DNA of 64,000 nt from Sphingomonadaceae bacterium (lineage in GTDB: Bacteria > Pseudomonadota > Alphaproteobacteria > Sphingomonadales > Sphingomonadaceae). Numbering within the stretch: position 1 is the first letter of the stretch; each line of letters begins with the position of its first letter. Both the position numbers and the translations under genes were made by a program. Below are positions 43,959 through 48,608 of this stretch, piece by piece. Location of the stretch: positions 29,424 through 93,423 of the forward strand of contig CANJUF010000006.1 of NCBI GenBank assembly GCA_947477745.1, written 5' to 3'. The notes under the pieces were generated by a model, which ran no database searches, had not been told where the DNA came from, and saw only the letters and a program-made list of their open reading frames with translations.

Positions 43959-44198
43959 ATGGACCGCTCAGAAGTCGACACCAGCATCCGCGCGCTGATC
44001 GAATCCTTCAACAAGAAGGGCATGGACATCAGCGATGCGACGCGATTTACCGATGATCTCGAATTCGACAGCCTGACGGTGATGGATTTCGTCGCCGCTA
44101 TCGAGGACGAGTTCGACATCATCATCTCGATGAACCTGCAGGCCGAGATCGAGACTTACGGCCAGCTTGTCGATGCAGTGGTGAAGCTGCTGGGATGA
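43959..44198 (+). CDS. Acyl carrier protein (spt-associated)
   Basis: DLEFDSLTVMDFVAAIEDEFDI; overlaps the spt start. Confidence 0.92.
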   Translation: MDRSEVDTSIRALIESFNKKGMDISDATRFTDDLEFDSLTVMDFVAAIEDEFDIIISMNLQAEIETYGQLVDAVVKLLG

Positions 44199-45394
44199 CC
44201 GATCTCTTCTCGAAATTCGACGACATCATCGAGATGCGCCGCGCGCTGCTTGCGTCGGGCGTGGAGGATCCCTTCAGCCTGGTGATGGAGCGGGTGCTCT
44301 CGCCCACCGTGGCAGTGTGTAACGGGCGTGAAACGATCTTGGTCGGCACTTACAATTACATGGGAATGACCTTCGATCCCGACGTGATCGCGGCGGGCAA
44401 GGAAGCCCTCGACCTGTACGGTTCGGGCACAACTGGCAGCCGGGTGCTCAACGGCACGTATTCCGGGCACCGCGAGGTCGAGCAGGCCCTGCGCGAATTT
44501 TATGCCATGGATCACGCCATGGTGTTCTCGACCGGCTACCAGGCCAACCTCGGCATCATCAGCACGATTGCCGGCAAGGGCGATTACATCGTGCTCGACA
44601 TCGATAGCCATGCCTCGATCTGGGATGGCTGCAAGTTGGGCGACGCCGAAGTCGTGCCCTTCAAGCACAATGACATCGAGGCGATGGAAAAACGCCTCAA
44701 ACGCATTCCCGAAGACGCGGGCAAGCTGGTCATTCTCGAAGGCGTCTATTCGATGATGGGCGACATCGCCCCGCTCAAGGAAATGATCGCCATCGCCAAG
44801 GCGAACGGGGCTATGGTGCTCGTCGACGAGGCGCATTCGATGGGCTTTATCGGACCCAACGGGCGCGGCGTCGCAGAGGACCAGGGCGTGCTCGACCAGG
44901 TCGATTTCGTGATCGGCACCTTTTCGAAGAGCGTCGGCACGGTCGGCGGCTTTTGCGTTTCCAACCACCCCAAGTTCGAGGTGATGCGGCTGGTCTGCCG
45001 CCCCTATGTGTTCACCGCGAGCCTGCCGCCCAGCGTCGTGGCCACGGCGGCAACCTCGATCCGCAAGCTGATGCACGGCCACAACAAGCGCCAGCACCTG
45101 TGGGAAAATTCACGCACGCTTCACGCCGGGATCAAGGCGCTCGGCTTCAAGCTCGGCACCCAGACCCCGCAAAGCGCGATCATCGCGGTGATCATGCCCG
45201 ATCTCGAGCGCGGCGCGGCGATGTGGGAGGCTCTGCTCCACGAAGGGCTCTACGTGAACCTGGCGAGGCCGCCCGCGACCCCTGCGAACATGACGCTGCT
45301 GCGCTGCTCGCTCTGCGCCGAGCATACCGCCGATCAGGTCGAGCGCATCATCGGCATATTCGAGCGCGCGGGCAAGGCGGCCGGGATTATCTGA
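44195..45394 (+). CDS. spt: Serine palmitoyltransferase
   Basis: GTYNYMG, GSRVLNG, EGVYSM, DEAHSMG, GTFSKSVG; acp-spt synteny. Confidence 0.92.
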   Translation: MTDLFSKFDDIIEMRRALLASGVEDPFSLVMERVLSPTVAVCNGRETILVGTYNYMGMTFDPDVIAAGKEALDLYGSGTTGSRVLNGTYSGHREVEQALREFYAMDHAMVFSTGYQANLGIISTIAGKGDYIVLDIDSHASIWDGCKLGDAEVVPFKHNDIEAMEKRLKRIPEDAGKLVILEGVYSMMGDIAPLKEMIAIAKANGAMVLVDEAHSMGFIGPNGRGVAEDQGVLDQVDFVIGTFSKSVGTVGGFCVSNHPKFEVMRLVCRPYVFTASLPPSVVATAATSIRKLMHGHNKRQHLWENSRTLHAGIKALGFKLGTQTPQSAIIAVIMPDLERGAAMWEALLHEGLYVNLARPPATPANMTLLRCSLCAEHTADQVERIIGIFERAGKAAGII

Positions 45395-45403
45395 GTCCCT
45401 GCT

Positions 45404-46039
45404 TCACGCCGGCAGCTCGGCCGCGGATGCGCATTTCTGGCTGGTTTCCTCGCCCTCTCCGCCAAGCAGCGTGACGGCCGCAAATCCAGAAATCACGATC
45501 GCGACGAAAGCTGCCGTCACCTTGCCGAGGTGCTTGTCGATCACCGCCTTGATCGGCGCGCCGAACAGGCGGAACAGCACGCCCACGATCAGGAAGCTGA
45601 TCGAACGCGAAACCACGCTGCCGAGCAGGAAGGTGCCGAGCGGCATCGCCATGAAACCGGCAGTGATGGTCAAGAGCTTGAACGGAATTGGCGTGGCGCC
45701 CTTGGCGACGAACAGCCAGAATCCGTATTCGCGCAGATAGCAGACCGCCGCCGGGAAGCTTTCGGCAAGCCCTAGCGCGCGCAGAAGAGCCGTGCCGAAG
45801 GCCTCGTAGGCGTAATGGCCGATAGCATAGCCAAGCATACCGCCCGCGACCGAGGCCAGCGTGGCGATCACGGCAAAACGCAGCGCCTTCTTTGGTTCGG
45901 CCAGGCACATCAGGCCAAGCAGGGGATGCGGCGGGACCGGAAAAAAGCTCGCTTCCATGAAACAGAACGCCGCCAGCCACCACTGCGCGTGCCGGTGCGC
46001 CGCCTTGTCCATGGTCCATTCGTAAATGCGGCGAAGCAT
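45404..46039 (-). CDS. YqaA/DedA family membrane protein
   Basis: FMEASFFPVPP, ATLASVAGG, GATPIPFK. Confidence 0.9.
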   Translation of the reverse strand: MLRRIYEWTMDKAAHRHAQWWLAAFCFMEASFFPVPPHPLLGLMCLAEPKKALRFAVIATLASVAGGMLGYAIGHYAYEAFGTALLRALGLAESFPAAVCYLREYGFWLFVAKGATPIPFKLLTITAGFMAMPLGTFLLGSVVSRSISFLIVGVLFRLFGAPIKAVIDKHLGKVTAAFVAIVISGFAAVTLLGGEGEETSQKCASAAELPA

Positions 46040-46200: not shown

Positions 46201-46263
46201 ATCGCGATATACCGATTCGCCTCGCCGGGGCAATTGGCCCCCACCTTTCATGGAAAGCCGCAA

Positions 46264-46740
46264 ATGACCAAGCCGATCAGGCGTGGCCGCAACCTGGTTG
46301 TGCGCCCGACGCCCCGGAACAACACCCGCTGGCGGGAAGTCTTTCTTGAGAAACTTGCAGAAACCTCGAATGTCTCGCTTTCCGCCGAATGGGCGAGCAT
46401 CTCGACCGCGCAGGTCTATGCGTCCCGCCGCTGCGAGCCTGAATTTGCGCGCAAATGGACAGCCGCCCTGTGCGAAGGCTACGACAATCTCGAAATGGAT
46501 GTCCTGCGCCGCCTGCGCACCGGCGATTCCAAGGACCTGGACGGCAACAAGTTCGATTTCGGCGCGGCGCTGCGCATCCTCGCCGCGCACCGTGAAAGCG
46601 CCGCACGCGAAAGGGCAATCCGCGACAACGAGGACGCCGACGCCATCATTGCCGAAATCGACGCGCAGTTCGACCAGATGCGCACTCGCGCCAAGGCGGC
46701 CGAGCGACTGGCGACGACGGACGACGATGTCACGCCGTAG
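46264..46740 (+). CDS. Putative GTA small terminase subunit
   Basis: WREVFLEKLAETSNV...FARKW..ALCEGYDNLE; lies directly upstream of the large terminase. Confidence 0.7.
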   Translation: MTKPIRRGRNLVVRPTPRNNTRWREVFLEKLAETSNVSLSAEWASISTAQVYASRRCEPEFARKWTAALCEGYDNLEMDVLRRLRTGDSKDLDGNKFDFGAALRILAAHRESAARERAIRDNEDADAIIAEIDAQFDQMRTRAKAAERLATTDDDVTP

Positions 46741-47185
46741 CGAGCGCCTTGAATGGCTGCTTTCGCTCGAACCCGAGGAACGTCATGCCCGCCTTCGCAA
46801 GCTTAAGGAAAGCGGCAAGCGCAAACTGCGCTTTCACTGGCGGCTGTGGGCGCATACCGAGCAGTTGCCGCCGCCCGGCGACTGGTCGACATGGTTGATC
46901 ATGGCAGGGCGCGGCTTCGGCAAGACCCGCGCCGGGGCCGAATGGATGCGCGAAATTGCCGATCACGATCCCGATGCGCGCATCGCATTGGTCGGCGCAA
47001 CGCACAATGAAGTGCGCGCGGTGATGGTCGAAGGCGAAAGCGGCCTGCTTTCGATCACGCCGCGCGGCCGCCGCCCGCGTTTCGAAACCACGCTGCGGCG
47101 GCTGACATGGCCCAACGGCGCGATAGCGACGATTTATTCGGCAGGCGAGCCGGAGAGCTTGCGCGGTCCGCAGCACAGCCATGCT
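46727..47185 (+). pseudogene. GTA/phage large terminase, N-terminal fragment only
   Basis: WLIMAGRGFGKTRAGAEW (Walker A), VEGESGLL, WPNG, EPESLRGPQHSHA, then homology stops before the expected WxDE Walker B. Confidence 0.85.
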
Positions 47186-47585
47186 CGCCGGCCAGGCTCA
47201 GAAGGAAGCCTGGGTAAACGAAGCTTTTGCACGCATCGATGGCCTGCTTCATTGCAGCGTCGAGGGCGAACGCGCCGATCCGCCGCCTTCGCCCGCCAAT
47301 GGCGAGGCGTGGGTCATTGCGACCGGGGCGACCGGCGCCTGGGCTGGCAAGGACGCGATGATCGCGGCGCGGCAGGCCGACAACTGGCTCTACATCGAAG
47401 GCAAGGACGGCATGCGCCTGTACGACAAATCAACCGGACAAGAGCGTCTGTTTGCAACGACGTGGGTAACGCCCGTGATACCGATGGAACCAACCGGAGG
47501 CTCAGTGGTTGATGTCGAGGCACGGGCAGTTCTCGCCGAACTGATCCTGGCACTGCGGGTTTCGGGAGTTTTTCCAAGACCTTGA
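47181..47585 (+). pseudogene. DUF2793 domain protein, probably N-terminally truncated
   Basis: AGQAQKE..VNEAFARID, PPPSPANGEAW, GAWAG, G.VVDVEARA. Confidence 0.75.
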
Positions 47586-47774
47586 CCTGGGCAGTGGCGG
47601 GATTGGCAAATCGAGAGAGGATATCCAAGTACCCGTGTGACAACTCAGGGGCCACCGGCAGACGAAAGCGACATTCTTGCAACAGTCTACGGCAAAGTGC
47701 GCTTGCGCGAGCCTGCCAGAGTCGGTAGAGAAAAGCCGCACTCGGTGGCTAAGTCTCTTTTTAGGGGAAGAGTA

Positions 47775-48608
47775 ATGCGAAAACTCGTCATAGGATTGGC
47801 TCTGGCTTCTACTGCCTTTGCAACTCCTGCCATGGCCCGCGATGACGCCTGGTACGTCGAACTCGATTTTGGCCCGATGATTGTTGAGGATGCCGATTTC
47901 GATATTGGCACCTTTGATAATGCTGCGACGCTCGATTCCGAATACGGCGGCGATGGCGGCTTCATTGTTGGCTACGATTTTGGCGGTTTCCGGCTTGAAG
48001 CCGAAGCGAGCTATCGCAAGGCAGATAACGACGCTTTGGACACTCTCGGCGCTGTCGCTCTCCCCATTGGCGGAGTTGGCAACCGGGTGATCGGAAGCTT
48101 CGGTAATGTTGGCGGCGATGCCAGCGCGCTTTCGTTCATGCTGAACGGCTTGCTCGATTTCGGCGACGATGATGGTCTTCAGGCATTCATAGGCGGCGGT
48201 GCGGGTATCTCGCGCGTCGATTATGATGTCAGCCTCGGCGGCGGAACGCCTCAGTTCCTTGATTCGTCCGATAGTTCGTTTGCTTGGCAGGTTCTTGCAG
48301 GCGTTCGCGCACCGCTTACCGAAAATATCGATGCCGGCATCAAGTACCGCTTCCACAACGTCCCCGATGTTGGGCTGGTCGATGGCTTGGCGCGCGATGT
48401 CGATACGCGTTGGCGCTCGCACAGTGCGATGGGCACGTTGACCTACAACTTTGGTGCACCGCCGCCTCCGCCGCCCCCGCCTCCGCCGCCTCCGCCGCCT
48501 CCGCCGCCGCCGCAGACGATGACCTGCCCGGATGGCACAGTCGTTGGCATGAACGAGACGTGTCCGATGCCGCCGCCACCGCCGCCGCCGGCGCCGGAAC
48601 GCGGTTAA
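47775..48608 (+). CDS. OmpA-like outer-membrane beta-barrel protein with polyproline tail
   Basis: Signal peptide, GYDFGGFRLEAE, FAWQVLAGVR, YNFG, poly-Pro, CPDG..CP, PERG. Confidence 0.88.
   Translation: MRKLVIGLALASTAFATPAMARDDAWYVELDFGPMIVEDADFDIGTFDNAATLDSEYGGDGGFIVGYDFGGFRLEAEASYRKADNDALDTLGAVALPIGGVGNRVIGSFGNVGGDASALSFMLNGLLDFGDDDGLQAFIGGGAGISRVDYDVSLGGGTPQFLDSSDSSFAWQVLAGVRAPLTENIDAGIKYRFHNVPDVGLVDGLARDVDTRWRSHSAMGTLTYNFGAPPPPPPPPPPPPPPPPPPQTMTCPDGTVVGMNETCPMPPPPPPPAPERG

Follow-up and report, generated by a model that had tools for sequence, protein, structure and literature searches.

How does a bacterial chromosome come to hold the two ends of a gene transfer agent (GTA) cluster, fused to each other inside two reading frames, with none of the particle genes in between? 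The locus that raises this question lies in a 64,000-nt stretch of DNA from a Sphingomonadaceae bacterium (the whole stretch is hereafter the window; assembly GCA_947477745.1, contig CANJUF010000006.1, positions 29,424 to 93,423 of the forward strand). Here a small terminase gene (TerS) and the first part of a large terminase gene (TerL) run directly into a gene of the DUF2793 family, a conserved domain of the tail fibre Rcc00171 of RcGTA, the GTA of Rhodobacter capsulatus (PMC5026251), that co-evolves with GTA structural genes (PMC10883770). What remains here is a deletion scar: ca. 12.8 kb of chromosome, from terminase codon 153 to DUF2793 codon 17, is gone. The loss is not private to this genome, and the same breakpoint is found again in other members of the genus and the family.

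Terminase-derived DNA ends at position 47184 (…CAGCACAGCCATGC) and DUF2793-derived DNA begins at 47185 (TCGCCGGCCAG…). Read from the ATG at 46727, the terminase frame matches only positions 1-98 of the 215 in the Terminase_6N profile (aa 57-151, Pfam), and the stump aligns to aa 19-165 of a 456-aa intact TerL. Walker A (GRGFGKTR) is kept, Walker B and the nuclease domain are absent, and homology stops after …LRGPQHSHA, which in all intact relatives is followed by WCDE (Walker B). No Terminase_6C match was found in the window terminase, both terminase domains being present in intact relatives (Pfam), nor any family match in its reading frame past aa 151. The DUF2793 frame, +1 relative to the terminase frame, has an ATG built across the junction from terminase CAT plus G. 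Of the 151 aa of the intact protein it covers aa 18-151, i.e., 17 N-terminal residues and the native start are missing, and its match to PF10983 is strong (85.2 bits, cut-off 27, profile positions 1-86 of 87). Upstream, the retained g1 homologue is 51% identical over 150 aa (tblastn) to its counterpart ahead of TerL in G003, a same-genus genome with an intact cluster; its open reading frame (ORF, 46234-46740) has no Pfam match. A first-pass annotation, made from the letters alone, had described a small terminase, a large terminase ending at RGPQHSHA before Walker B, a switch to a DUF2793 frame without its N-terminus and an outer-membrane gene directly behind it; Pfam and the alignment to intact TerL bear this description out and fix the junction to the base. 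The features of the locus, in window coordinates, are as follows.

46234..46740, plus strand: GTA g1 / small-terminase-like gene, retained (tblastn)
46727..47184, plus strand: GTA large terminase remnant, codons 1-152 plus 2 nt (Pfam Terminase_6N; alignment to intact TerL)
47184..47185, plus strand: deletion junction, class I (see below), TerL …CATGC / TCGCCGG… DUF2793 (collapsed versus intact alignments)
47185..47512, plus strand: out-of-frame terminase tail through DUF2793 DNA (stop at 47510-47512; terminase ORF 46283-47512)
47181..47585, plus strand: DUF2793 (GTA tail-fibre N-domain) gene without its first 17 codons (Pfam PF10983)
47637..48608, plus strand: outer-membrane beta-barrel gene, flank (Pfam OMP_b-brl; synteny)
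45404..46039, minus strand: VTT/YqaA-like membrane protein, host flank (Pfam VTT_dom; upstream of TerS in relatives too)
44195..45394, plus strand: class I/II aminotransferase, serine palmitoyltransferase-like, host flank (Pfam Aminotran_1_2, E=3e-51)

What has been lost can be read from G003, where the order is TerS, TerL (456 aa), portal, protease, HK97-type capsid, connectors and tail genes, then NCTSP/DUF2460, hub, an Rcc01698-like g15, DUF2793 and the outer-membrane protein. This is the RcGTA-like head-tail cluster that, according to the first-pass annotation, lies between terminase and DUF2793 in sphingomonads, next to yqaA/spt, and its estimate of 10 kb or more for the missing structural genes can now be replaced by 12,764-12,782 bp, the size of the missing piece in relatives. 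The upper figure is the distance in G003 between the two points joined in the window, and seven more relatives have 12.6-13.6 kb between the TerL and DUF2793 genes. The site is a conserved chromosomal GTA site, with g1 upstream, the outer-membrane protein downstream and PheT 14-24 kb away in intact and collapsed relatives. Using tblastn with 15 proteins of the G003 cluster, we found no portal, protease, capsid or tail genes in the whole assembly (all 63 contigs, 98.7% complete), the only matches being g1, TerL residues 19-165, DUF2793 residues 18-151 and the outer-membrane protein. As flanking pieces alone are recovered, the particle genes are absent and have not moved to another contig, and with its head-tail module deleted the bacterium can no longer build GTA particles.

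Between the two origins that the first-pass annotation had offered, natural loss stands and misassembly falls. A 63-contig draft does leave some room for two distant points of an intact cluster to be wrongly joined, but nothing of portal, capsid or tail turned up on any contig of this nearly complete genome, the two sites have no repeat in common that might mislead an assembler, dozens of assemblies of differing source share the identical junction, and collapsed contigs of three sequencing runs follow an intact conspecific at 99-100% identity as far as the break. We give an assembly artefact practically no probability.

Database homologues of the terminase N-terminal part (TerL-N) bear the names N. 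pentaromativorans US6-1, Novosphingobium sp. 9U and N. marinum, and the genus is Novosphingobium. The nearest sampled relative (G012), with ca. 78% DNA identity at the locus, has the same junction to the base, and six of 19 same-genus genomes are collapsed in the same way. For a genus survey, 151 evenly drawn genomes were searched with a concatenated query and the terminase-site DNA was inspected in 95. The junction is present in 32 of these 95 Novosphingobium species, while 61 continue into WCDE. Other loss alleles are rare, i.e., a frameshift (G105), a Walker A stop with a different break (G046) and another deletion in one of the 61 (G148). Among the 120 closest TerL-N database relatives, at least 36 carry the same junction and 61 were scored as having a full-length TerL (68 terminases passed the length criterion as full-length in the mosaic tests described below).

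G148 (contig C5, L140; 2902-3210 and 3348-4346), a close relative of the collapsed G007, has a full TerL, a 102-aa ORF with a GIY-YIG domain and a portal truncated after ca. 230 aa, which is joined into DUF2793 near codon ca. 33; owing to this deletion of its own, it was ruled out as an intact sister of G007. The lesion of G046 (contig C3, 22957-23481, L136) is likewise a separate one, with a TAA within the Walker A codons and terminase homology lost ca. 40 nt before the usual break. On a JGI contig (L153, with the protein P0028; 6807-7812), the genes behind a full-length TerL are small ORFs and a DUF2335 gene, with no portal there; the gap between TerL and portal appears to be a variable insertion point or the site of another rearrangement.

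The junction also extends beyond the genus. A pattern search of family genomes (ca. two per genus), complemented by alignment, found it in seven further genera (g87, g95, g109, g111, g112, g117 and g118), where the flanks are only ca. 70% identical to the window. In G554 (g95) the frames run from TerS to TerL …PQHSHA/RPGK… (here and below the slash marks the break), with a DUF2793 frame …AGQAQKEFYVNE…, and the junction has one extra nucleotide (+1 nt). With flanks this divergent, spread by homologous recombination is very unlikely. A literature search found no report of one GTA breakpoint recurring across species and genera.

How, then, is the collapsed state distributed over the phylogeny? 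In a tree of PheT (733 aa, 17 genomes), whose gene lies 14-24 kb from the locus, collapsed G001 is sister to intact G003 (support 100/100) and collapsed G017 to intact G006 (100/99), and at least three state changes are forced among the 17 genomes. In a maximum likelihood tree of the terminase stump (TerL-N, 91 genomes, 351 nt), collapsed species are scattered almost at random: 23 state changes are needed versus a mean of 25 for shuffled labels, and the supported branches alone force at least 15. Sister pairs of opposite state are common (G111/G072, G125/G152, G135/G104, G145/G040, G070/G098 and others), and collapsed and full-length database proteins reach TerL-N core identities of 99.1% (P0019/P0028 and P0036/P0038), 97.4% and 96.6%. 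Together, the PheT and TerL-N trees rule out one ancient deletion in one clade.

The two states also meet within one species. Collapsed contigs L147-L149 stem from three sequencing runs, and the complete cluster is found in L146, i.e., the metagenome-assembled genome G163. Aligned to this intact genome, the collapsed contig gives a left block of 2,398 nt at 99% and a right block of 1,346 nt at 100%, which abut at a single G common to both, and the collapsed allele lacks 12,764 bp. The break points are …CACGCCTG/GTGC in TerL and …TTTTCG/CCGG in DUF2793; the parents read TerL …CAGCCACGCCTG/GTGCGACGAG and DUF2793 …CTGCTTTTCG/CCGGCCAGGCC, and the collapsed product reads …CACGCCTGCCGGCCAGG…. In L147, the 57 nt adjoining the junction are identical to the conspecific intact genome. 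Such near-identical flanks mean that both alleles exist in one species and that the flanks carry no foreign patch.

At the nucleotide level, 38 of the 39 junctions examined have the same length and position, and they fall into two classes. In class I, to which the window belongs, TerL runs to …CAYGC, followed by the last two bases of a DUF2793 Phe/Tyr codon (TC, TT or AT) and GCCGG…; class II has three more terminase bases (…CAYGCNTG) and a DUF2793 start three bases later (CCGG…). The only difference between the classes is the parent (left or right) that supplies a stretch of 2-3 nt. There is no shared core: microhomology is 0-1 nt, a single G being common to both ends at the class II break, and no repeat or in-register homology was detected between the TerL and DUF2793 sites, whose 24% identity is at random level. 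Random end processing is expected to give variable junction lengths. Equal lengths with a 2-3 nt overlap would fit an in-register exchange, or staggered breaks that were annealed or filled and then resolved either way. Several other candidates were tried and dropped, as they predicted another junction length or found no support, i.e., gyrase subunit exchange, restriction sites (NgoMIV/EcoRII-like), Xer/dif, integron core sites, intron-like splicing, headful packaging cuts and a wobble-dependent 6-bp inverted repeat.

A breakpoint that recurs with base precision suggests a site-specific deletion process, and this breakpoint is a hotspot used repeatedly in Sphingomonadaceae. We consider it probable that recurrent site-specific deletion takes place at the same two nucleotide positions in this family, the mechanism itself being one that we infer. 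Its two targets would be conserved coding motifs, one just before the terminase Walker B and the other the N-terminal tail-fibre motif LPLL(F or Y)/AGQAQKE. Breaks at a defined position in each would be joined again in one fixed register, with an overlap of 2-3 nt that could be resolved to the letters of either parent and would so yield the two classes, …GC-CTG-CCGG… and …GC-TCG-CCGG…, of equal length. Somewhat more tentatively, we propose that this may be an enzyme-driven process that excises the GTA structural module at two fixed positions in the terminase and tail-fibre genes of Sphingomonadaceae. It might be a function of the host, or one linked to the GTA, by which a producer lineage irreversibly becomes recipient-only; alternatively, phage-borne homing-type nucleases might attack both conserved motifs, and collapsed genomes would then be the survivors.

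Several observations weigh against recurrent site-specific deletion. No recognisable recognition sequence is common to the two sites, and third codon (synonymous) positions around both of them vary freely. Neither a recombinase nor a nuclease was found in the Pfam annotation of two intact clusters, to which this search was confined. The difference between the classes could also have arisen by point mutation (CTG-TTG-TCG). In the conspecific pair, the capsid of the intact strain is present in identical form in other runs and not in the three runs with the collapsed contig; the alleles, found in different runs, have thus been seen in different populations and not side by side. Finally, the pattern within the genus, taken alone, is compatible with an old allele whose flanks have been homogenised by recombination.

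This last point leads to the question of whether the junction might have formed only once. One old deletion would have persisted as a presence/absence polymorphism or hopped between lineages by homologous recombination, with gene conversion from intact alleles homogenising the flanks up to the junction, so that they track species. A blunt junction with next to no microhomology is what one rare illegitimate event should leave, and the near-random distribution over the tips, coupled with polymorphism within a species, fits a balanced producer/cheater polymorphism. Furthermore, the junction-adjacent sequences are the most conserved part of the flanks, so that short conversion tracts would leave little trace. 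However, a mutual-information scan of the left flank found no nucleotide tied to the collapsed state up to the last terminase base, the association with state does not rise towards the junction, and no linkage disequilibrium was found within 20-30 nt of it. Lineage-specific variants abut the junction itself: the Ala codon before the break is GCG in both intact G138 and collapsed G139 (GCG-TG), the first post-junction bases of G125 match the DUF2793 of its intact sister G152, including an unusual CAG-TCN-CAG, and the 57 nt beside the L147 junction match the conspecific intact genome exactly. The junction is present in at least eight genera with ca. 70% identical flanks, and once differs by 1 nt, a spread that weighs strongly against one old polymorphism. 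A single origin would also need many independent imports, each with complete erasure of the flanks. We regard it as unlikely.

Recombination at this very position was also looked for in intact genes. Comparing the N- and C-parts of the 68 full-length terminases revealed no general mosaicism, and a max-chi-square scan found no enrichment of breakpoints at the junction. P0009 and P0010 are the full-length terminases nearest to the window, with 87% and 83% identity to its stump. Between them, identity falls from ca. 90% to ca. 55% precisely at the junction column, rising again towards the C-terminus; this pair is a terminase mosaic with its breakpoint at the hotspot, and it would speak for a single origin with conversion. 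It would also suit a reversible cassette, in which a 12.8 kb block can both excise and integrate and the collapsed locus is an empty, refillable attachment site, an idea that gains from the precise junction, the species-congruent flanks and the interspersion of states on the tree. On the other hand, two annotated intact clusters hold no integrase in or beside the block, its ends have no common core, the full-length terminases lack general discordance between N- and C-parts, and the circle form would carry a terminase deprived of its N-terminal ATPase part. A cassette of this kind seems highly improbable to us. Recurrent formation in situ is favoured because there is no linkage signal, no homology between the ends and no general mosaicism, and because the letters at the junction are lineage-specific.

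If the module is deleted repeatedly, what is the state of the pieces left behind? Pairwise ratios of nonsynonymous to synonymous substitution rates (dN/dS) are 0.25 among collapsed versus 0.23 among intact genes for the stump, and 0.26 versus 0.24 for DUF2793. Of the 32 stumps, 30 have an undamaged Walker A. Over a set of 56 residues, each conserved to at least 95% among intact genes, the mean number of deviations is 1.10 in collapsed and 0.69 in intact genes (p = 0.04), and the window stump has two. Many junctions read CAC instead of CAT, leaving DUF2793 without a start codon, and the out-of-frame terminase tail is unconserved. In the TerL-N tree several collapsed genomes have longer branches than their intact sisters, and older copies of the scar are decaying (G001, G142 and G082), part of DUF2793 being deleted in G142. 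In G001 (contig C6, L019, minus strand, ca. 1750-2030), alignment to terminase DNA is lost upstream of the last ca. 65 terminase codons and a TAG interrupts the stump; this is an older, decaying copy of the same scar. In G115 (contig C17, L060, 87-941, minus strand), a 10-nt deletion inside the stump has created a 284-aa TerL-N::DUF2793 fusion ORF. That the remnants have barely decayed points to young collapsed alleles and not to conservation for a function. From these comparisons, g1, the terminase stump and the truncated DUF2793 are probably young, non-functional remnants, and collapsed lineages seem to be short-lived or to coexist with intact ones within species.

The opposite reading, that the three genes form a selected mini-operon with a new function, would account for the intact ORFs and the low dN/dS of the stump, for the retention of Walker A, for the differences of the window g1 from that of G012, which consist solely of in-frame indels, and for the in-frame fusion of G115. 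We find it very unlikely: the dN/dS values and the divergence equal those of intact genes, as expected if the alleles are simply young, many copies lack a DUF2793 start, the terminase-frame tail is not conserved, older copies decay and several collapsed branches exceed those of their intact sisters in length.

The surroundings of the scar offer a few further observations. The intergenic segment 46150-46215 upstream of g1 (…TTCTTGACATCGTCACGCT…GGAACATCGCGAT…) is conserved between the window genome and G012 despite the loss of the cluster and may be an old GTA promoter or regulatory region. The outer-membrane gene comes after DUF2793 in intact and collapsed relatives alike. In the window its end has long proline runs (PPPPP…, 48440-48608) and, unlike the G148 orthologue and the 378-aa G003 protein, it has no C-terminal OmpA domain; OmpA-like C-terminal parts match other contigs instead.

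The scar can be set against several known systems. Its pieces are homologous to g1, g2 (TerL) and DUF2793 of the RcGTA-type cluster (R. capsulatus g1-g15 plus Rcc00171) and sit at the chromosomal position of the full cluster of relatives, but from TerL codon 153 to DUF2793 codon 17 no particle gene is left. Whether partial clusters might be GTA remnants has been discussed before (Shakya et al. 2017, PMC5721377), and the window resembles such decaying clusters in that a lineage has lost genes which its relatives keep, with fragments of the end genes left behind. Known GTA scars, however, have breakpoints that are private and differ, whereas the present one is found again, exact to the base, in many species and genera. 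The nucleotide-precise, repeatable removal of a block of more than 10 kb with its ends inside coding sequence recalls the skin element of B. subtilis (sigK) and the nifD element of Anabaena. Those elements have a dedicated recombinase, identical core repeats and a functional gene restored by excision, whereas here neither a recombinase nor a common core was found and the product is two broken genes. With microhomology-mediated illegitimate deletion or end joining the scar has in common the 0-1 nt of microhomology and the rare +1 nt length variants. Independent lineages are not known to undergo spontaneous illegitimate deletion at the same two nucleotides; the end points of such deletions would differ between independent events, whereas 38 of the 39 junctions examined here agree in length and position and only G046 and G148 differ. 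Recurrence of one junction in independent events (at least 15 forced changes, seven further genera, a conspecific pair) is shared with excision by site-specific recombinases. Homing endonucleases target conserved coding motifs and tolerate wobble variation, and both sites here are likewise conserved protein-coding motifs with variable third positions.

The persistence of GTAs is an open question, as producers die and non-producers can cheat. The window genome is one that cannot make GTA particles, and such GTA-less lineages amount to about one-third of the sampled Novosphingobium species, where they appear young and coexist with intact conspecifics. What the pattern suggests is a hitherto undescribed nuclease or recombinase that acts on two conserved coding motifs, and a single junction-specific polymerase chain reaction would make the dynamics of producers and non-producers measurable in cultures and metagenomes. 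If the deletion is indeed base-precise and repeated, a specific molecular process, and not random decay, may determine how many non-producers arise.
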